64,000 bases of DNA from Candidatus Bathyarchaeota archaeon (GCA_963833575.1 CAWHXY010000004.1:256001-320000), one strand, 5' to 3'; numbered from the stretch's first letter, positions 39,066-49,358 are shown. A program made the numbers and translations. Notes: generated by a model not told the origin, from the sequence alone.

Positions 39066-39142
39066 GGGCTGGTAGTTCAGCTGGTATGAACGCTTGACTT
39101 GCACTCAAGAGGTCGGGGGTTCAAATCCCCCCCAGTCCACCA
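39066..39142 (+). tRNA. tRNA-Ala (TGC), CCA encoded
   Basis: GGGCTGG/CCAGTCC acceptor with G3:U70; anticodon arm CTTGA-CTTGCAC-TCAAG; T arm GGGGG-TTCAAAT-CCCCC. Confidence 0.96.
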
Positions 39143-39168
39143 GAATAACTCCCGGACATTTTGGGGAT

Positions 39169-39338
39169 TTATTTTCTTTTTCTGAATAGCTTGTTGCCGC
39201 TAAAGTCGCAGACAAATTCAAAGCCTGCGTCTATAAGTTGGCAAGATTCCAATTCAGAGTGTGCGACACGAGCTGTGAAGTCATCGTCTTTGACACGACC
39301 AGCTGAGTGTAAAGCAGTGTGTTGTTGATTGATTTGTG
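39169..39338 (-). pseudogene. C-terminal relic of a tyrosine recombinase/integrase (frameshifted, N-terminal portion deleted)
   Basis: Manual translation HKSINNTLLYTQLV (box II His...catalytic Tyr), a frameshift, then KDDDFTARVAHSELESCQLIDAGFEFVCDFSGNKLFRKRK*. The stop lies about 26 nt from the tRNA-Ala 3' end, in convergent orientation. Confidence 0.8.
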
Positions 39339-39460
39339 AGTAACCTTTTGGCTGATGGATTATAGCTAAGAAAAAATATCACTTGCGATATAAGGCTTCA
39401 CCGTCCTTGCGTCAAATCTACTGCTCACCTAATACTGCCTTGAACGCCCATAAACAAGCG

Positions 39461-39521
39461 AAAATAGGGGTTTTGCGGGTTAAATCACGAGGCTGATCAG
39501 GGTTCAAATTCGCACAATCCA
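39461..39521 (+). repeat. att-like repeat copy 1 (motif + degenerate tRNA 3' end)
   Basis: AAAATAGGGGTTTTGCGGGTTAAATCAC...GGGTTCAAATTCGCACAATCCA. Confidence 0.6.
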
Positions 39522-40089
39522 ATTGCACGCCACTAAAAAAACTCCTAAGGTCTTCTAAGGATTGGCGGGCATAGAAAGAACCGCCTTAGAATTATTATGT
39601 TTGTTTTTATAGGTTCTGATGATTAGATAATTAACTAAAGACCTTCCTCTATACCCCCCAATTTATTGAAGGCCTTTGACGCACAATTCTTCAAGAGCCT
39701 TCAATGTTCTGTTCCCAAGTCCCTTATCGCCGGAGAAAAAAGTGCCTGACAAGAATGCTGGGCGGAATTCTTCCAAAGTTATCTTGATGCTTCTAAAAGG
39801 AGCACAATTTGTCTCTCTCCTTTAACTCGTTTTTGACCACTTAGTCTGATGAGAAATACGAGCTGATAGAGGCGTCCAATTTGAGTTAAGCGAGTTAAAT
39901 CATATTTGCCAAGCAAGTTAGCTGCTTAAAATTTGAAAGGTGAGAGTTAGGGCGTTTTCTGCCCTTTTGCCTTGAATCGAGCGCTGTTCAGTTTTTCAGT
40001 TAAAGAATTAAGCCGATGCTTGAACTCTTCAGGAGATTCAGCGTTGTTAAAGACTGCCATCAAAAAACCTCAGTCACCTAAGTCCTACC

Positions 40090-40386
40090 CTAACTTTGTT
40101 GTCGCTCCGTGCAGATTTTTTGGCAAAGCACATGGTTTAGCTCCTGCTCAAGACTCCGCAGCTTCTTCTGTTGAGCCAACATGATAGACATGACCATGGG
40201 TTCAAAAATTATTGGATTGGTGGCGCAACTGCTTGCTGAAGCGAGACTGCGGCAACTATCCATCATCTGGTCAAAGGCTTGCCGATCTTCTTCGCTCGCC
40301 AATCCATCTTTGAAATTTTTCCATTTGCCAATCTCGACTTCCAAAGCCATTCTATAAGAAGGAATCGTCTTACCCAACTCCGACAC
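40090..40386 (-). CDS. Small helical protein of the 'MG(R/K)T.PS(Y/F)R' type, resembling the PolB2-associated arCOG07300 family
   Basis: GKTIPSYRMALEVEI..WK.F...L...DR..FD.MM...R..ASA.S; family link from memory, not searched. Confidence 0.6.
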   Translation of the reverse strand: MSELGKTIPSYRMALEVEIGKWKNFKDGLASEEDRQAFDQMMDSCRSLASASSCATNPIIFEPMVMSIMLAQQKKLRSLEQELNHVLCQKICTERQQS

Positions 40387-40735
40387 ACCTCCATAACTCT
40401 ACTATCATTTTCATAAACAAACACCTAGTTCGAGCATATCGCCTAAACTGTTTAAAAAGCAATTCAAGAAACATGTATTCGGGGCAGTAGAGAGAAGAGT
40501 GAAAATGAAAGTTAGATTGGACAAATGGGTTTCAAATAGTTTGTATTTTTAGAAAGGGTTTGCTGAGGCTCTGGAAAACAAAGGAGAAAATAAAGCAAAT
40601 GCAAATGCCCTATCTTCCAAATGCTATAGCTATCTCGTGAATTCTAACCAGAGCCTGCTCAGCCCCACTCTTCGTCCGATTATTTTTCTTCTTGACTAAA
40701 AAAAGGGAAATTGATTTTTTTGGGATGCAATTTTT

Positions 40736-43700
40736 TTAAGCTTTCTTTCTGAGGATTAGAAATCCGACGACCGCGACTGCGATGATTATCGCGATTCCTA
40801 CTGCTAATATGTATGTCAATAGGTTTGCATTTGTTGCTATGTCTGCTAATGTTGTCGCTTGCGGCGATGCTGTTGCTGCTGGACCGCCGACAACCATAGT
40901 GGTTTCAGCAGTTGATGGCCAGTATCCGTTGGTACCTGCGAACGTGGAGGTCACAGTATAGATGCCTGGAACGTTTGGAGGCGTCCAACCGAAATGATAT
41001 GAGCCACTTGCATCAGTTGTCGCGCTGCCAAGGGTTACGTAGTTGCCGTTAGGATCAAAGCCAGTCAAGGTCACTGTAACACCTGTGAAGTTGGTTGGTT
41101 CTGCTTGTTGCTGGTAGACATAGCTCATCCACGAGCTCATGCTTGTATCGGAAGCACACGGAACTCCGTTAGGAAAGTCAGCTGCCTGCTCAGTTTGCTT
41201 TGTGCCAGCGGCAATATCCATCACTGTTCCTTGGATAACTACTTTTGTACCTGCTGTAATAGCATCTTGTGGTGCCTGTACTGTGGTAGCGCTTGGTCCT
41301 CTGCCAGCACAGTAAGCTTGCATGTCGTAACCATTAAGGAATACTGCATAGCCGTCTGCGAGAGCTGGCGTGTTCATACTACCGTAATCTGAAAGTGTCC
41401 ATACTTCTTGTCCCGTAGTGGCGTTAATAGCGCGCATCAGTGCTCCTTTGTAAATCGGGTCGGTGACCGTGTGCTCATTACTCATCAGGTATACTATTCC
41501 GTTGCCACTAATAGGTCCAACGTAGTTCGGATATTCACCGTAAGGGGAGCTTAAGCTATAAGTGCTGTTGCCTGCGCCTCCGTTACCGTAAGTGAAGTCT
41601 AAAGCTCCAGTCAAATCGTTATAGGCGTACAATACTCCTCCCATTCCATCAGCGTAGTAATGACCGTAAGCCAGTGCACCGAGTATACCGTAGCCAAGCT
41701 CATAGTATTGGAGACCAGGTGTCATGGTTGCAGTTGGACCCCATATCTGTGCGCCTGTGTTCAGATTAAATCCCACAAATTGCATTGTTTCCTCATAATA
41801 TTCAACGAAGGTGCGGGTTTGCCAGTCGGCGCCTTGAATGCTGATAGTGAAGTTGCCTGCTGGTGGATTGTAGTTCTGCATCCATAATATCGAACCGATT
41901 GCTCCCCGAGACGCGTTGAGGTTAATGGCGAAGAGTGTGTATGGAAGTTGTGGCCAGCCTGTTGAAGTTGTCGAGAAGCCAACAGGTAGAGAGCCGTTTC
42001 TGCAAAGCATTATGTCACCAAAGTTAGCTGCAACTACAGTTACTGGATTTGTTCCGGATTGTGCATAACCATCAGCTCCTGCGGTTCCTTGTTCAGTTGG
42101 TGTTACTAGCAGTCCGTTGGCGGTGTTATAAGTGGGTTGCAAAGGCATGGTGTTGAGCCATGGTATCGAGACGTTCCAGTCGTAAGTGGTTTGAGCCATG
42201 GTATTAGTTGGATATATAGTGCTGGAGTTTAAGGGGATGTTTGCATTGGCTATGATTGAGGAACCATACGGGACGAAGACGGTTGCACCGGGGGCGCCTG
42301 GTGACGTAGGTGGTAGTGTGGCAGTGGTGCCAAACGGTGTTATTGGAACACCTGTAGATGAAACGAGTGCTCCGTTGGTTGCATTTATGATTGATGGGTT
42401 AGTACTTCCGCCCGAGCTGTATGGGTTTACATCGTATTGCCATATCTTAGATGAGTTCCACTCTTGTAGATACCACTGTGGATTCGTCGAAGTGCCGCAG
42501 TTGGCAAAGACATATCTGATCTGTTCGCTGCTTGGGCCTGGTACAGTCGCAGTTGTTAGAGCTGTGGCTGGCTTGCCCATCTCTAGCTGGCCCGTCGCGG
42601 GTGCAAATCCTGGAACATTAGTGATGTTGAACAAGCATGTACCTGTCAATCCATCGAAAACCTCCCACATTGAAGGCAAACCGGTTACACTTCCTCCTAT
42701 AGGTGAGAATAGCATTGGTTGGAATGCGCCGTGTTGTTCGCCGTTCCAAAGGTTGTAGATGTAAGCGAATGATATGCCATTTATATTATTCGAAGACCAA
42801 ATAAGTTGTCCTGTTTGCAGGTTGATGCATTCCTCTGGCCCAGTTCCGGTGACTCCTACTGTGCTCTTGAAGTACATCATTCCGTCTACTATTATCACTT
42901 GACCTCCGAACCCTGAGAATGAACTGGCGAATCTTCCAAGATAGCAAGAGCCCTCGAAGTAGCCAACTCCTTGAGCATCAGTATACAGGTTTCCTCCGAC
43001 TGTTCCACCTGATGTCAGCGGCAGCGTCCACATGACGTGAGGAGTCAGAGGTCCTACAGAATCGCCATGAAACACTGAGGAGCTAGTATAGCCTGCTGCT
43101 TGTGGTGAACCTGTGCCTAGCCAGTCAGACGAAATTGTGTACCAATTAGAGTTCTCACCGTATATTGGTCGAGTCCAGTAGCTTGTCGGCATCGGTTCGC
43201 TGTTTACGGCTGATGGTATCGGTGTTTGTTGAACAGTGACTGTTGTTGATGCGCTGCTTGGCAGATAAGTGTCGTTGATTAGTATTGAACCGGAGTAGCC
43301 ATTGCCTCCTGCTCCATATACTTGTCCTGGGTAATTAAAGGTGAGAGTGTACGTGCCAACCTGAGTGGGAGTGAAGGTAGCGTACACATTTGATGTTGGA
43401 TCCCAGACAGTAGGCCAAGTCTGCGTTGTGTTTGTGCCGTCAGGCGCTGTGATAGTGAGCTTGAAGTTCTGGAATCTCCAAACGTTTGATGTCAATGATG
43501 CGCTTGCTGTGGCGCCAGTCGTTCCAGGGAGAGCAGTCGTTCCGCCAGCTGCTCCATAAACAGCGTTGAGCCAGGCATAAACAGTTTCTGTTTGACCGAC
43601 ACCTATAGGGCTTGGCGTCGCTTGAATGTAGGCATATGTTGGAATTTGCCATGCGGGTGTATGTGCTAAGGCATTTGGTATTAGTGCCATTGAAGTTGCC

Positions 43701-43762
43701 ATTGAAAGTATAAAGAATATTGCAATCAATATAGCTGAAATTTTATTTTTTAGTATTTTCAT
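40736..43762 (-). CDS. Giant (~1000 aa) secreted, C-terminally anchored beta-rich protein (PQQ-like beta-propeller plus Ig-like domains)
   Basis: Signal peptide from ATG 43762; repeated IN..TG..IW / AINATTG.EVW propeller motifs; T/S/G/P/N-rich; C-terminal TM helix followed by RKKA. Confidence 0.8.
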   Translation of the reverse strand: MKILKNKISAILIAIFFILSMATSMALIPNALAHTPAWQIPTYAYIQATPSPIGVGQTETVYAWLNAVYGAAGGTTALPGTTGATASASLTSNVWRFQNFKLTITAPDGTNTTQTWPTVWDPTSNVYATFTPTQVGTYTLTFNYPGQVYGAGGNGYSGSILINDTYLPSSASTTVTVQQTPIPSAVNSEPMPTSYWTRPIYGENSNWYTISSDWLGTGSPQAAGYTSSSVFHGDSVGPLTPHVMWTLPLTSGGTVGGNLYTDAQGVGYFEGSCYLGRFASSFSGFGGQVIIVDGMMYFKSTVGVTGTGPEECINLQTGQLIWSSNNINGISFAYIYNLWNGEQHGAFQPMLFSPIGGSVTGLPSMWEVFDGLTGTCLFNITNVPGFAPATGQLEMGKPATALTTATVPGPSSEQIRYVFANCGTSTNPQWYLQEWNSSKIWQYDVNPYSSGGSTNPSIINATNGALVSSTGVPITPFGTTATLPPTSPGAPGATVFVPYGSSIIANANIPLNSSTIYPTNTMAQTTYDWNVSIPWLNTMPLQPTYNTANGLLVTPTEQGTAGADGYAQSGTNPVTVVAANFGDIMLCRNGSLPVGFSTTSTGWPQLPYTLFAINLNASRGAIGSILWMQNYNPPAGNFTISIQGADWQTRTFVEYYEETMQFVGFNLNTGAQIWGPTATMTPGLQYYELGYGILGALAYGHYYADGMGGVLYAYNDLTGALDFTYGNGGAGNSTYSLSSPYGEYPNYVGPISGNGIVYLMSNEHTVTDPIYKGALMRAINATTGQEVWTLSDYGSMNTPALADGYAVFLNGYDMQAYCAGRGPSATTVQAPQDAITAGTKVVIQGTVMDIAAGTKQTEQAADFPNGVPCASDTSMSSWMSYVYQQQAEPTNFTGVTVTLTGFDPNGNYVTLGSATTDASGSYHFGWTPPNVPGIYTVTSTFAGTNGYWPSTAETTMVVGGPAATASPQATTLADIATNANLLTYILAVGIAIIIAVAVVGFLILRKKA

Positions 43763-44120
43763 TTTGTGTTTTTCTTCCTTTCTATTTTTGTTTCGATTGA
43801 GAAGAAGCTGAGAAAGATGCCTCTTCCCAACTACTTTGCTCTCTTTATCTTTGAGTGTAAATAATTTGCGTAAAGCATTTGGGGAATAATACAGCAAAAA
43901 ACTACCATTTTTTAAATATAAAAGAAAAAAATTGTAATGAAAAAGGCAAATTCTATTCAAAAAATCCTAAAAAACCTGTTTTTACGTACACGCGAGTTAA
44001 TAGTCTTCAAGAGGAAAATTCATTAAATAACTTGCATATAAAACTTAACTATTTTACCAAAATTATAAATTCTAAAGCTTTTTATCTACATGCACCATGA
44101 AAAGCTATTCAGGAATATAG

Positions 44121-44594
44121 ATGAGTGCTAAAGCAGAAATTGACGAAATTGACATCATAATTTTGAAGGAACTAATTAAAGATGCGAGAACAAAATGCAC
44201 AGAAATAGCAAGAAAGTGCGGGTTATCAGTTCCTGCCATAACAATGCGAATAGAACGGCTAAAAGCAACTGGTGTAATAACCGGAGCAGCACTTTACATA
44301 AACATGAGCGTTATAGGCTACCTTCAACCAGCCACCATAATGATAGAAGCTACTCCTGACCAAGAATCAACAGTCATCAAAATAGCAAAACAGCTGTCGA
44401 ATTTAGTGATGATAGATAGAAGCGTTGGCATGAGCAATTTAGTCCTTTTCTTAGTTGCTGAAGATATAAAAAAAATAGACGCAATAAAGCAGAGCATTAA
44501 AAAACAAGCGAAAGTAGGAAAAATACAAGTCAGCTTCTGGCACACTCCAGAGTTTATCTTTGAAAATATTGACCTTCAACAAACAGGATCTTGA
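44121..44594 (+). CDS. Lrp/AsnC family transcriptional regulator
   Basis: IDEIDIIILKELIKDAR...EIARKCGLS..AI..RIERLKATGVI. Confidence 0.9.
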   Translation: MSAKAEIDEIDIIILKELIKDARTKCTEIARKCGLSVPAITMRIERLKATGVITGAALYINMSVIGYLQPATIMIEATPDQESTVIKIAKQLSNLVMIDRSVGMSNLVLFLVAEDIKKIDAIKQSIKKQAKVGKIQVSFWHTPEFIFENIDLQQTGS

Positions 44595-45067
44595 AGTCCA
44601 TGGATAAGATTGATGAAAGCATATTAAAGGAAATTACAAAAAATGCCCAAACACCTTTTCTAAAAGTCGCAGACAAACTCGGCATTTCATCTAAGACTGT
44701 TAAAGAAAGGTACGAAAAAATGAAGAAGAATGGAATAATTCTACGTCAAACTATTACACTTGATCTTTCAAAAATAGGGTATCAAGGCAAAGCGTACTTA
44801 GCAATTACGAATTCCCCAGACCAAGATAGAGCAACGACCATAAGAGCCCTGAAACGAGTGCCCAACATATTCATGATAACAGAAATCGTAGGAGATTTCG
44901 ATATTTTAGCACTTGCAGTAATTAGAGACCTCAACAGTTCAATCAATCTTGTAAAGGAAATCAGAGAAATCCCAAGCGTACAGCAGGTGCAAGTAGCTCT
45001 TGTTGCTGATGCCTCCTTCCCAGTTGGAGAGAGGTTTAGCGAACTTTTCATAAGAGAGACCCATTAA
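44591..45067 (+). CDS. Lrp/AsnC family transcriptional regulator (tandem)
   Basis: MDKIDESILKE..KNAQTPF..VA.KLGIS..TV..RY, plus a RAM domain with GDFDIL. Confidence 0.9.
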   Translation: MKSMDKIDESILKEITKNAQTPFLKVADKLGISSKTVKERYEKMKKNGIILRQTITLDLSKIGYQGKAYLAITNSPDQDRATTIRALKRVPNIFMITEIVGDFDILALAVIRDLNSSINLVKEIREIPSVQQVQVALVADASFPVGERFSELFIRETH

Positions 45068-45220
45068 AGCAATTTGACTTTTTGCAAGCATGCGCTAGTA
45101 TTTTTTTGAGAAACTTGGCACGCCCAGTTGCAATCGTTCCACTATTCAGATGCTTAGACATTTGGCACTAATAGGTAATGTTCCGTTGGTGTTTGAGTTG
45201 TGGGTTAGCACGCCGCGCTG

Positions 45221-45277
45221 AAAAAAAGGGATTTCGCGAGTGACAACTCAAGGGCTTCGAATCCCATCCCCGCACCA
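45221..45277 (+). repeat. att-like repeat copy 2 (motif + 3' end of a non-Ala tRNA)
   Basis: AAAAAAAGGGATTTCGCGAGTGACAACTC-AAGGGCTTCGAATCCCATCCCCGCACCA. Confidence 0.72.
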
Positions 45278-45318
45278 AATTTTCTTAAGCATTAAAGTCC
45301 TAATTATGTTGAGAATGC

Positions 45319-45984
45319 ATGAATTGGAAATGGAAGCTCCTATCGTTCATGGTCGTCATGATTATTGTGGTTTCAGGAGTCACAGTCTTCTTTCTAAACT
45401 CAGTGAATGCCCCTAAGCAGCAAGAATTGCCGATTCGCATCGCATGTGTTGGAGATAGTATAACAAATGATTCTGGTTACCCAGATGACCTTTGGATGCT
45501 TCTTGGCGCAAACTACAACGTAAGCAAATTCGGCGCGGGCGGTGCAACGGTAACGCTAAATTCTGAAAAGCCCTACATCGACCAAATTGAAATGCAGGAA
45601 GCAAAGAACTTCCAACCAAATATCATCATTATCATGTTAGGAACTAATGATGCTTACCCAGGCTTTCAAAGATTCAACGCAACCTTTGTAGAGGATTACA
45701 AACAGCTAATTGCCCAATTTCAAGCGCTGCCTACAAACCCGAAAATTTGGGTTGTTAAGCCACCGCCGATTTTCAATAACGGCACAGGGTTAAGCACCGA
45801 ATTCTTTGATTCAACCATTATTCCCAGAATTGAATTGGTCGCAAAAGAAACCAACTTGCCCATAATCGATGTCTATTCAGTGCTGGCTGGCCATCCCGAT
45901 TTTTTTGTTGATGGGGTGCACCCGAAAAGTGAAGGCGCAAAAGCAATCGCTTACGAGATTTACAAGGCATTAACTTCAACTTAA
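45319..45984 (+). CDS. Membrane-anchored SGNH/GDSL esterase/lipase
   Basis: ACVGDSIT (block I), MLGTND (block III), DGVHP (block V); N-terminal TM helix. Confidence 0.92.
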   Translation: MNWKWKLLSFMVVMIIVVSGVTVFFLNSVNAPKQQELPIRIACVGDSITNDSGYPDDLWMLLGANYNVSKFGAGGATVTLNSEKPYIDQIEMQEAKNFQPNIIIIMLGTNDAYPGFQRFNATFVEDYKQLIAQFQALPTNPKIWVVKPPPIFNNGTGLSTEFFDSTIIPRIELVAKETNLPIIDVYSVLAGHPDFFVDGVHPKSEGAKAIAYEIYKALTST

Positions 45985-46047
45985 TGCTAACTTTTGCCCA
46001 TTCCGTTTTTGGTTTGTTAGATAAAACTTTACCCTACAACGATCACT

Positions 46048-46109
46048 AAAAAGGGATTTTGCGAGTGAAATCTCTTGCAGAGCGAGGATCAAATCCCCCC
46101 CCAGTCCAC
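46048..46109 (+). repeat. att-like repeat copy 3 (motif + near-exact tRNA-Ala 3' end)
   Basis: AAAAAGGGATTTTGCGAGTGAAATCTC...TCAAATCCCCCCCCAGTCCAC versus tRNA-Ala TCAAATCCCCCCCAGTCCAC (one extra C). Confidence 0.8.
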
Positions 46110-46668
46110 TCCAACACAAACTTTTCACTGACTAAACGATAGAATAAGTCAAACTTAGAAATTGTTTATTGTATTTTATAGTTCTGGTGACAAGCTATTT
46201 TCCCGAAGAATCTTTCTCCGTCTATACCCCAAGATTTTTGAAGGACCTTGTACATGCCGCCAAGCTCTTGCTGGGCAAACAAATCCGGATAGCAGTTCTA
46301 TTTATTATCAATATTCTCAGTTCATAAGACTTATTTTCGAAGAAAAAGCAGAAGACTATTGAAACAACTTGCGCGTCAATGAAAAAATCTTAGGCTCTCT
46401 CGCGTTGATATTTCTTAGTTCAGGCTGCGTACCTGCTTACTTTCATTTTAAGCTTTATGCGATTGTGTTTTGGATGTCTGGTTTTGCTTTGATGAATGTA
46501 CATATTTTTGTTTTGTCGCGGAAAAAATTCTAAGGCCTGCCGCAAATCGAGCAGTATAAAGACAACCAAGACAAATATTATTTTATACGTTCTGATGATG
46601 AGATAAAATTCAAAATACCTCTTCTCTTCTGCAGGAGTGAAATTTCAGAAGACTTAGTAGATTCACTA

Positions 46669-46869
46669 CTAATTTATGTTTGGCGGATTTATTTCGCTCG
46701 CAACGATCAGAACCTGCTCCGTCAAGAACTGTTCCAACCAGTCAAGCCTATCGGAGCTGTCAAGTGCTTCTTTGTGTGCAGCCACATGAGTCTTAACGGC
46801 AATGCTCATGGCTTTCAAATCCGGAACAATTAAGATTTCAGAGCCGCATATACATCTTATAATAGGCAT
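46669..46869 (-). CDS. Small putative Zn-binding protein (CxC...HxxxH)
   Basis: MPIIRCICGSEILIVPDLKAMSIAVKTHVAAH; the ORF extends upstream to 46956. Confidence 0.6.
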   Translation of the reverse strand: MPIIRCICGSEILIVPDLKAMSIAVKTHVAAHKEALDSSDRLDWLEQFLTEQVLIVASEINPPNIN

Positions 46870-47435
46870 CCCTTTGTCACGTAGAGCGAGTTTGTTTTTG
46901 CGGTTTTGACCTGAATTGCAATTAATTTCTTGAGTACTTCGTTTTGTCATGCCCATTCAATCTAGACTTGCCCACTTTTTGGTCTGCAACGGGAGCAAGT
47001 GGATTTCCATATTATCCTGCAAAACATAAAAAAGATTGTGATAGGCTTAGCGCAATCACATGCGAATAATTCCTTTTATTTATTTAGTTTTAGATTCATT
47101 CTTGATTCTAGAGAAAAGTTTTATCAACAAAATGCTTGATTTCTTGAATCAAACAACCGCTGACTGGCTTTCTTTCGCAAATTTGATCAGCGTAGAGGCA
47201 GACTGAGTGAATTGACAAGTGCGATACGCCCACAAGCAGAATCATGAACAGCATGCCTTGACCATTTTTTTTTCACACGCATATAGCTTAAAATTCTCTT
47301 TCTTGATTCAAAATACATAATTTGTCAATTAACTGGAATCAAACAACGTGAAATAGCAAAAAGTTTATAAAAAATCAGCCCGTTATTGCACTGGAAAGAC
47401 CACCTCTGAAACTGGAGAATCATGAGGCACAGCAG

Positions 47436-47705
47436 ATGAGACGATCAAAACTAGAAAGTTACGTTGACATCCTCAAAGTATTAGCGCATACCGGTCCATT
47501 AAAGCTAACACACATCATGTACAAATCTAATTTCAACGGAAACATACTCAGAGAATATCTTGACTTTCTAATCAAGCAAGGCTTGATAGAAGAACGAACA
47601 ATCAAAAAGAGACACTCACTTTTCGCCGTTACTCAACGAGGCATGACAGTGCTGAAGCATTTCCAAGAACTCACGCAAGAAATATCCGCCATAGAAGAAC
47701 CATAA
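47436..47705 (+). CDS. Winged-helix regulator (archaeal HTH_45 type)
   Basis: MRRSKLE..VDIL.VL...GPLKLTHIMYK.N.N...L.EYL.FLI.QGLI...T.RG. Confidence 0.85.
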   Translation: MRRSKLESYVDILKVLAHTGPLKLTHIMYKSNFNGNILREYLDFLIKQGLIEERTIKKRHSLFAVTQRGMTVLKHFQELTQEISAIEEP

Positions 47706-48092
47706 ATTCAAACAAAGACCCGATTCTAATTGGGCTCAATAGGATAATACAACTCGAAATTTTGTGTATGAAAAACCTTTATGCCCAAGTTAAGAAGACG
47801 CATGAAGGTTTCCCTTGCAAGTGGGTGACCACTAAAGTAACATTTCAAGAGTATGTTCACTTGATGAAAGAGCAGGTTGGGAAAACAGAAGAAATTAAGA
47901 AGAAATTGAACAATTACGAGTCTTTGAAAGACTGAGGCAACAAAAAGTGCAAAGAACAAATCAGCAATAAGAAATTCAACACGATTAGCCGTTTGGAAAA
48001 CTATGAGACAGCCTAACTCAATGCTTACAGCAAAAAACGGCCAGAAAAAGTCAAATAAGAACTGAAGATAGAACTGGAGCCGCTGCTCAATT

Positions 48093-48920
48093 TCAAGTTA
48101 CATCGTTTGTTTGATACTCAGGCGGTGGGGGTGGAGGCGGAACATCTAACATTTTGTTTTGTTTTCGCTTTCTCACAAATAACCCAACTACGAACGCGGC
48201 GACAACTATAATCGCGACAGATATGGCAATCAAGTATACGGAAACGCCTTGGCTAGAATTGGCTCCTTTTTGTTCTGCAACGTTTGCCAGGTCCAAGTAA
48301 GTAGATACATCCTGAAGAGTAATCAAGGCTTGGGTCCAGTTTCCAGCGTTAGCTTGTGATGGTGCAAGGTCGTAAGCGGCTTGTGCCTGCTGCAGGTATG
48401 ACTTAGCACTGGCAATTTGATAGTGGGTTCTGTTGGCCGTGTTCATTTGATTTTCAACCTGAGTTAACAAAGTGTTGTAGAGTTTTTCTTCGGCTGGACC
48501 AACCTGTATTGTTGAAGATGGAGAATCCCATGAGAAAGTGTTAGATGACGCATCTACACCGTCAACACCGACATAATAGGTGTGTAGACCCTCTGTAACG
48601 TTAGTTGGTATCTGAACTGAAAATGACTCTGAAAGAACTGAGTTGGAGGTTGAAACATAGCCTGGAGTGCTATTCAAGTTAACCCCATAGAAGCCATCTG
48701 TTGGCATCCAGTCAAAATGAATGCCTACGTAGTATATCGTCAGCTCTTGACTGCTCTGGAAAGTCACTTGTGCGCCAATTATGTCGCCACCATAAAAAGT
48801 GGAATTTGCCCAAGTAACGGTCGCTGACGCATCACTTGAGTCAAGAGCAAAAACTAAACCGCTAGAAACAAAAAGCATACTTACGCAAACCGCAATTAGA
48901 ACTATTCCAAGTGATTTCAA
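48093..48920 (-). CDS. Secreted/membrane-anchored protein (Ig-like domain, helical stalk, C-terminal TM, poly-Pro tail)
   Basis: Signal peptide, beta-rich domain, TM helix followed by RKRK, then PPPPPPP. Confidence 0.7.
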   Translation of the reverse strand: MKSLGIVLIAVCVSMLFVSSGLVFALDSSDASATVTWANSTFYGGDIIGAQVTFQSSQELTIYYVGIHFDWMPTDGFYGVNLNSTPGYVSTSNSVLSESFSVQIPTNVTEGLHTYYVGVDGVDASSNTFSWDSPSSTIQVGPAEEKLYNTLLTQVENQMNTANRTHYQIASAKSYLQQAQAAYDLAPSQANAGNWTQALITLQDVSTYLDLANVAEQKGANSSQGVSVYLIAISVAIIVVAAFVVGLFVRKRKQNKMLDVPPPPPPPEYQTNDVT

Positions 48921-49109
48921 CGGGAATCTCCTCTCTCACTACCGCTAACTCTACAAACTATATAATTTTTTGCCGTGAATTGCTACCGATAACCGATTAA
49001 GAAATCTATCACAAAAACTTCTTTTTGTACGCTTGCTATTGAGAATAACTCTTAAGATCTTAAAGCTCCAATGACTCCGTCAAAGATAACGAACGCTTAT
49101 TCAAGAAAG

Positions 49110-49172
49110 AAAAAAAGGCTCTTTGCGAGTGACATATCCACTCTGACTTCGTCTAAGTCCACCCAAGTCCAC
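49110..49172 (+). repeat. att-like repeat copy 4 (most degenerate)
   Basis: AAAAAAAGGCTCTTTGCGAGTGACATATC...AAGTCCACCCAAGTCCAC; the end matches tRNA-Ala AGTCCAC. Confidence 0.58.
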
Positions 49173-49184
49173 TTTCATGTTCTC

Positions 49185-49358
49185 TTAAATCTTTCTTTGT
49201 TTCTGAATAATTCTCAACGCAAAGAAGAGAGTGAACAAGAGTGCTAGAAAAACCACAAACCACACTGCAAAGATTTCACCAGTAAGCAAGTAGGTGGTTA
49301 CTATTACCAAAAGCAACACTAAAAGAAGAATTACCATAAGTTTCATACGTAGATCCAT
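49185..49358 (-). CDS. 57-aa two-TM microprotein
   Basis: Manual translation MDLRMKLMVILLLVLLLVIVTTYLLTGEIFAVWFVVFLALLFTLFFALRIIQKQRKI; GAGGA upstream. Confidence 0.55.
   Translation of the reverse strand: MDLRMKLMVILLLVLLLVIVTTYLLTGEIFAVWFVVFLALLFTLFFALRIIQKQRKI

Follow-up and report, generated by a model that had tools for sequence, protein, structure and literature searches.

The stretch analysed here (the window) comprises 64,000 nucleotides of a Candidatus Bathyarchaeota archaeon genome (GCA_963833575.1 CAWHXY010000004.1:256001-320000) and carries one tRNA gene, tRNA-Ala(TGC), found by both ARAGORN and Rfam. The region directly behind it, 39143-49185 counted from the first letter of the window, is inserted DNA. 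It is very probably an integration hotspot island, in which plasmid-like elements of the same family inserted serially into the 3′ end of tRNA-Ala(TGC) and later decayed. The borders of these elements carry a short non-tRNA motif, which marks element borders across Bathyarchaeia and belongs to one element family. A first-pass annotation had taken the same locus for a candidate integron-like cassette system anchored on the tRNA gene. In what follows, G000 denotes the genome holding the window, other G numbers relative genomes, L numbers fetched loci and X1-X4 public sequencing runs.

The 18-mer GGGATTTYGCGAGTGAMA, with up to three mismatches, has four matches in the window, all on the same strand, against 0.18 expected, and none of 100 shuffles reached four. 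The matches start at 39467 and 49117 (three mismatches each) and at 45228 and 46053 (none), and an A-run precedes every one of them. When the whole G000 genome was scanned, exact and near-exact copies were confined to the island locus. The attachment (att)-like sites, together with the tRNA gene and the integrase relic beside it, are as follows.

39066-39142, plus strand: tRNA-Ala(TGC), the intact target gene, attL side (ARAGORN; Rfam tRNA, 70.6 bits)
39143-39356, minus strand: element arm next to the tRNA and relic of an Xer-like 'FRKRK' integrase, about the last 62 codons, frame broken (tblastn)
39458-39530, plus strand: att-like copy 1, A-run, GGGGTTTTGCGGGTTAAA and T-loop-like GGGTTCAAAT, tail not Ala-like (nhmmer E=0.002)
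40493-40553, plus strand: possible fifth, very degenerate att relic (GTGAAA...GGGTTTCAAAT) at a module border (direct reading; weak)
45221-45277, plus strand: att-like copy 2, A-run, exact motif and tRNA-Leu-like 3′ end TTCGAATCCCATCCCCGCACCA
46045-46109, plus strand: att-like copy 3 (attR), A-run, exact motif and TCAAATCCCCCCCCAGTCCAC (nhmmer E=1.4e-6)
49107-49185, plus strand: att-like copy 4, outermost decayed attR and right border of the island

The tails differ from copy to copy. Behind copy 3, TCAAATCCCCCCCCAGTCCAC (46089-46109) reproduces tRNA-Ala 39121-39140 with one extra C, a 20/21-nt repeat. The tail of copy 2, TTCGAATCCCATCCCCGCACCA, is a complete tRNA-Leu-like 3′ end and not an Ala one. 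Copy 4 retains the Ala acceptor strand AGTCCAC(C) alone, present twice, with a decayed T-arm, and copy 1 retains merely the T-loop-like GGGTTCAAAT. Thus, the four same-strand copies and the near-identity of copy 3 to the tRNA-Ala 3′ end, both reported in the first-pass annotation, are borne out, while its statement that a tRNA 3′ end stands behind each copy holds fully for copies 2 and 3 and only partly for copies 1 and 4. The left half of copy 3 recurs almost unchanged at sites in L124 and G098 whose tails are different, which fits a crossover at the T-loop.

Comparison with relatives delimits the insertion. The closest relative, G044, is homologous to the window as far as 39141 and from 49186 onward, and its 3.45 kb between these points are unrelated; 39143-49185 is therefore inserted, and copy 4, with which the right border of the island coincides, is its outer scar. 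The corresponding right border in G044 is marked by a degenerate copy of the motif. Twenty loci of the same genus were fetched, with the adenosine-kinase gene to the left of the tRNA as anchor. The pair of adenosine-kinase gene and tRNA-Ala is kept in 19 of the 20, and the downstream gene order of the window occurs in none of these 19; content differs in all of them, and the same order without the repeats was not found. Six loci (L047, L048, L050, L052, L058 and L061) have same-strand motif copies with Ala-like tails downstream of tRNA-Ala, each a composite of A-run, GGGG.tTTGCGGGTGAcATCTCCAC, a few bases and then the T-arm and acceptor strand of tRNA-Ala. A DNA search with the whole island against 119 other genus genomes recovered no module copy above ~87% identity; surface-protein paralogues gave the best matches, at 64-74%. 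Immediately to the right of copy 1, the segment 39547-39820 has 77-80% DNA matches in two other genomes of the genus (G020:C65 and G102:C5), and no motif or integrase was detected there.

The element family can be named from the integrase relic, whose presence in the window had been proposed earlier and is real. On the minus strand, the sequence to the right of the tRNA reads ...LIDAGFEFVCDFSGNKLFRKRK, and the relic ends ...KLFRKRK. Aligned by tblastn with the intact integrase of G098, 39172-39291 matches residues 341-380 (95% identity), and 39288-39356, read in a different frame, matches residues 319-341 (65%). The window and G098 have the same DNA between the tRNA T-loop (39120) and 39175, a stretch that takes in the spacer separating the tRNA from the integrase stop codon. 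The G098 integrase is 380 amino acids long (Pfam Phage_integrase, 8.2e-22) and abuts tRNA-Ala. Its closest solved structure is XerA 5hxy (1.4e-11), and the family integrase stays below the NCBIfam cut-offs for integron integrase (58.7 bits vs 265) and for XerA (88.3 vs 220). The G098 element occupies 21.5 kb at tRNA-Ala (C6:1042300-1063800; L192/L197) and ends in a motif variant with a perfect Ala tail; three further motif copies lie beyond its end, and ~940 nt before the terminal attR there is an internal att-like site whose tail is Arg-like. Its cargo includes a PriCT-type primase, a type IIG-like N6 methylase/restriction gene and a Shedu (SduA) gene.

Further members of the family came from 80 metagenome loci holding integrase relatives. 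In 18 of them an opposite-strand tRNA gene, for Ala(TGC), Arg(CCT), Leu(TAG) or Leu(TAA), stands no more than 200 nt from the integrase end. In several of these 18, the end of that tRNA recurs at the far side, in a repeat that bears the motif. The minimal arrangement is seen in L217 (3380-5000), where ~1.5 kb devoid of cargo holds tRNA-Arg(CCT), an intact integrase and the motif with a 27-nt exact repeat; L260, L265 and L284 are arranged likewise, and the integrase is also intact in L215. Many loci retain just the last 20-80 integrase codons by the tRNA, as the window does, a state that we ascribe to the inability of deletions to cross the tRNA. G000 itself carries an FRKRK integrase with one frameshift beside tRNA-Cys at a contig start (C1:95-1542), and two motif copies with tRNA-Cys tails, matching the C1 integrase, at a contig end (C5:107700-108700); this tRNA-Cys element probably spans the C1/C5 assembly gap. 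Motif and FRKRK integrase thus occur together in G098, in L217 and across C1/C5. G098 and the metagenome contigs support the earlier suggestion that the shared non-tRNA motif is the conserved att arm of one tyrosine-integrase family ('FRKRK'), and the G098 array and the right border at copy 4 support accretion of several elements at tRNA-Ala by that family. A second integrase family of 480-497 amino acids is also present in G000 (C2:199-1704, C4:3550-5030 and C7:18743-20300). One of its copies runs antisense through tRNA-Gln, and two are followed by same-strand 3′ fragments of tRNA-Lys and tRNA-Asn that lack the motif.

Across genomes, the motif is a conserved block of ~19 nt behind an A-run, with the consensus GGGG.tTTGCGGGTGAcATCTCCAC. 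Of 41 related genomes, nine contain a 20-mer version with at most two mismatches, and these span five genera (f/g labels) of the order; the reversed control has no match. Eight of the 20-mer matches lie outside G000, five with a T-loop-like tail and three spurious. A scan of named genomes with a pattern of core, gap and T-loop returned at least 118 loci, and among those listed 52 loci (54 instances) passed a filter for the A-run and GGG. Within the first 80 loci, 34 passed; 30 of these 34 are labelled Bathyarchaeota or Bathyarchaeia, and four lie in bacterial-labelled bins. L085 is a typical composite in a 667-kb contig whose record is labelled Gemmatimonadales, and L092, L108 and L147 are short contigs with the same composite in bacterial-labelled bins; these cases may reflect binning or labelling errors.

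The spacing between motif and tail is nearly constant. Among the 54 instances listed, the distance from motif end to T-loop is 16 nt in 41, 15 in seven and 17 in two, and four have no T-loop, where the scan pattern permitted a 21-nt range for this gap. The tails in the listed matches are 3′ ends of many different tRNAs. Full pairing between the motif-side pseudo T-stem and the tail is seen in just 8 of 50 listed instances, a sign that the T-loop may be where identity to the target begins. Searched with a profile of the 54 instances, G000 has nine matches at E<0.05, six of which read as T-loop-tailed, with diverged copies at other loci. The motif is therefore not scattered, and 50 of the 54 listed instances stand 15-17 nt before a T-loop. 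We infer a putative protein-binding site, for an extra domain of the integrase or for an accessory factor, at a fixed distance from the T-loop crossover region. In the portions available of the literature on Bathyarchaeia viruses and genomes, a literature that is not searchable by sequence, integrases are mentioned, att features are not, and the motif itself was not met. All eight pattern matches in viral contigs were spurious, lacking both the A-run/GGG prefix and a tRNA-like tail. An apparent covariation of the motif 5′ GGGATTTyG with the T-loop (C/G in copy 2, T/A in copy 3) fails in instances with TTCGAAT tails.

In the proposed mechanism, an Xer-like tyrosine recombinase, Cys-rich in its N-terminal domain and ending in ...FRKRK, would direct each insertion, rebuilding the tRNA and setting the integrase gene beside it. 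The attR at the far end would then consist of the element arm (A-run and ~19-nt motif) joined to the chromosomal copy of the tRNA from T-loop to acceptor end. Newcomers would push older elements outward, and the older ones would shrink by deletion to small integrase-less modules. On the opposite strand the A-run reads as a T-run, which would probably end the integrase transcript in the circular form.

The modules between the att-like copies hold the following genes.

40554-45206, strands given with the genes: surface-protein/Lrp module (Pfam; contig borders)
40736-43960, minus strand: 1074-aa surface protein with weak PQQ_2 and Ig-like matches (Pfam)
44121-44594, plus strand: Lrp/AsnC regulator 1 (Pfam)
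44591-45067, plus strand: Lrp/AsnC regulator 2 (Pfam)
45319-45984, plus strand: GDSL/SGNH hydrolase gene (Pfam Lipase_GDSL_2, 3.5e-20)
46110-49106, mixed strands: older module between copies 3 and 4
46669-46956, minus strand: 95-aa Cys-rich protein (gene call)
47436-47705, plus strand: HTH_45 winged-helix protein (Pfam)
48093-48920, minus strand: 275-aa anchored protein (gene call)

The gene content given in the first-pass annotation (Lrp pair, SGNH, winged-helix regulator, giant surface protein) is broadly right by Pfam. The modules hold one to four genes each, on both strands and with their own regulators, the SGNH module being the single-gene case. Those between copies 2 and 3 and between copies 3 and 4 have no integrase and are flanked by the motif common to integrase-bearing elements. 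Homologues of the surface protein stand directly after tRNA-Ala or between att copies in L050, L053, L055 and L057. Secreted proteins of this family (weak PQQ_2/Ig-like) are the commonest cargo directly after tRNA-Ala in the genus; L050 has two tandem att-bounded units, each a surface-protein gene with an att, and G000 has a paralogue of 72% DNA identity at C7:481388-484275. The pair of small Cys-rich and winged-helix proteins recurs in many genus genomes (34-79% amino acid identity) and at other G000 loci. Relatives of the window pair (46669-47705) are found at L205-L212, and the pair of G051 (L208) adjoins tRNA-Cys in an arrangement like that after copy 3.

The SGNH gene between copies 2 and 3 had been singled out as a lone integron-like cassette. 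Its Leu-type left site and the native neighbourhood of tRNA-Leu(CAG) and SGNH genes point instead to flank capture. In G043 an intact tRNA-Leu(CAG) is followed directly by an SGNH gene, and in G097 and G106 a degenerate motif with a Leu tail directly precedes one. These SGNH genes beside tRNA-Leu or a Leu-type att share 59-62% amino acid identity with that of the window. At the tRNA-Leu(CAG) locus of G000 itself, a 49% SGNH paralogue lies ~850 nt (one gene) downstream. Because tRNA-Leu(CAG) or a Leu-type att directly precedes the SGNH gene in G043, G097 and G106, copy 2 and its SGNH gene look like a captured chromosomal flank, and the gene is probably the flank of a tRNA-Leu(CAG) integration site. 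An attR formed at tRNA-Leu(CAG), together with the neighbouring chromosomal SGNH gene, would have been picked up by aberrant excision and brought into the Ala island. The case offers a worked example of how a chromosomal gene adjacent to a tRNA may become mobile.

Module borders were also compared in assembled contigs of the four public runs X1-X4, which show neither rates nor circles and drop rare forms. X1 contains pieces at least 99% identical to the region, one of them spanning copy 3. One X2 contig follows 42634-45206 at ~98% identity (50 differences in 2573) and then continues into 3265 nt that do not resemble the window. Another X2 contig matches 45251-46084 at ~93% (55 differences) and is preceded by 2142 nt unlike the window. 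Contigs of X2 and X3 holding the surface-protein gene diverge left of 40553/40554. The divergence of these contigs at att borders indicates that the modules end at att copies in other organisms too. Candidate joints in X1-X4 had sides of 21-38 nt at 90% likeness, lay mostly inside the surface-protein gene and were read as repeats or other organisms. The part of the chromosomal flanks without cover in X2 is no evidence and was not used as a sign of horizontal transfer.

Several observations weigh against serial accretion and decay as a full account. Copies 1 and 2 lack Ala tails, so plain accretion at tRNA-Ala does not account for all of them. An intact integrase is missing from the island. A clean free attP, for which integrase, core and motif would share one circular contig, did not turn up among the 80 metagenome loci; in four of them (L218, L282, L285 and L290) the integrase end is followed by the motif within 250 nt and no tRNA, and these are relics or contig ends. 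Neither an excised circle nor an empty-site joint (e.g. 45277-46109) appeared in the X1-X4 contigs, from which rare forms drop out. The scan patterns were derived from the motif, and conservation within the pattern is therefore partly built in; this does not hold for spacing and tails. In several arrays the modules are very short (0.5-1.3 kb), a feature that decay can account for but does not predict. Lastly, on the minus strand of G000:C8:157300-164500, six degenerate copies of A-run and motif lie within 7 kb with no tRNA anchor by ARAGORN or Rfam, spaced 0.5-2.6 kb apart with small open reading frames between them. As a separate observation, six sites in G000 (C7:627703 and 628307; C8:21973, 26891, 157357 and 159259) form a subclass sharing a longer tail, ...GGGTTCAATyyGATTCCCC...GGAGGGTTTGAGTTCAACCC, that is not an obvious tRNA 3′ end; the motif is clear at C7:627703, degenerate at the others and barely present at C8:21973.

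The integrase-less modules may be mobilised in trans. A stronger version, in which the att relics are recombination-competent, passing FRKRK integrases excise, insert and reshuffle modules between arrays, and aberrant excision routinely mobilises tRNA-adjacent genes, is rather doubtful. If true, it would make these arrays an archaeal, tRNA-anchored functional analogue of gene capture by integrons or cis-mobilisable elements (CIMEs), with the 19-nt motif as a common handle. A standing integron- or CIME-like platform, whose att copies remain substrates for integrases supplied in trans and whose integrase-less modules are reshuffled as cassettes, is unlikely. It would accommodate the recurrence of short-module arrays (four to five copies in the window, six on C8, two tandem units in L050, several in G098), the left arm of the copy 3 type joined to three different tails in three genomes, and the X2 modules (surface-protein/Lrp at ~98%, SGNH at ~93%) that end at att borders and give way to DNA unlike the window. 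However, most array members end in the tail of their own anchor tRNA, which is what simple accretion would predict, and neither a module copy above the ~87% ceiling in the 119 genus genomes nor an excision joint in the X1-X4 assemblies, which lose rare forms, was found. The island has no resident integrase or fixed attI-like site, and the intact integrase travels with its element. The integron-like cassette system of the first-pass annotation is not supported: the integrase is reduced to ~62 codons and is element-borne where it is intact, the sites are tRNA-derived and no better hairpins than shuffles, and the modules are multi-gene and occupy both strands.

It is very unlikely that the motif has no part in recombination and acts as a generic transcription terminator or as a structured or regulatory RNA. 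The opposite-strand T-run of 4-7 nt does resemble an archaeal terminator signal, yet a T-run alone needs no 19 conserved bases, the nine profile matches in G000 are not scattered and include six read as T-loop-tailed, and the 15-17-nt spacing in 50 of 54 listed instances is left unexplained. A structured RNA was rejected, as the fold z-scores of the four copies on both strands (-1.67 to +0.83) are no better than those of shuffles and no Rfam family other than tRNA itself matched.

Hardly credible, and rejected, is a coding remnant, in which the motif would be the 3′ end of an integrase gene spanning its own attP, as in 'suicidal' integrases of the SSV (Sulfolobus spindle-shaped virus) type, with stranded int(C) pieces: although the minus strand of the copies reads ...D[FV]TRKxPFF in one frame and the length from the tRNA-derived GxGF to DFTRK is equal in copy 3 and L008, no long open reading frame ends in the motif in any of nine instances, the integrases of G098, L217 and the frameshifted C1 copy end FRKRK* before the tRNA and are whole when integrated, and the flanking TCCAC, outside the search pattern, varies little across the 54 listed instances, which fits constraint at the DNA level better than coding.

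The composite of motif and T-loop is a cheap and specific border marker for a widespread element family in Bathyarchaeia, a largely uncultured lineage whose mobile elements are barely described. It delimits islands, arrival order and cargo in metagenome-assembled genomes, and the cargo it brings into view comprises large surface proteins and regulators, with defence genes in G098. The fixed spacing provides a testable hypothesis, namely that this archaeal integrase system has an accessory DNA-binding site.

Islands of tyrosine recombinases that remain intact on integration include the pNOB8 type in archaea and P4- and lambda-like elements in bacteria. The island shares with such tRNA-targeting elements an integrase beside the intact tRNA (a relic in the window; intact in G098, L215 and L217), a direct repeat of the tRNA 3′ end at the far border (copy 3, partially copy 4, and 27 nt in L217) and a hotspot with tandem arrays whose content differs among relatives. 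It differs in the conserved ~19-nt non-tRNA motif, 15-17 nt from the T-loop and common to many tRNA targets. Tandem integration of archaeal tyrosine-recombinase elements and the arrays that result are described in the available parts of PMC8371274 and PMC6563490; by word search of the available part of PMC8371274, arm binding is discussed there for phage lambda alone.

Precedents for elements stacked at one RNA gene also come from bacteria. CIMEs, formed by accretion and mobilisation of the Streptococcus ICESt type, and the tandem ssrA islands of Dehalococcoides are both built from stacked elements. Shared with them are the integrase-less modules between att copies of an integrase-bearing family, stacked at one RNA gene; the host here is, in contrast, archaeal. 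The route proposed for the SGNH gene is that of specialised transduction or aberrant excision, where an attR and the adjacent chromosomal gene are carried off by an element, although here it is deduced only from synteny in relatives, with no donor identified. 'Suicidal' SSV-type integrases and the gene capture they cause in archaeal chromosomes were reportedly described by She et al. in 2001. As in that case, archaeal elements at tRNA genes became trapped and left captured genes behind; unlike it, the integrase is not split by integration, and trapping would proceed by deletion. With integrons the island has in common a series of short recombination sites that separate modules, one of them single-gene, and it departs from them in having no platform integrase or attI, tRNA-derived non-hairpin sites and multi-gene modules on two strands. 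The composite of motif and T-loop, with its link to the FRKRK integrase, is an addition to a known kind of scar and no new kind of recombination system.

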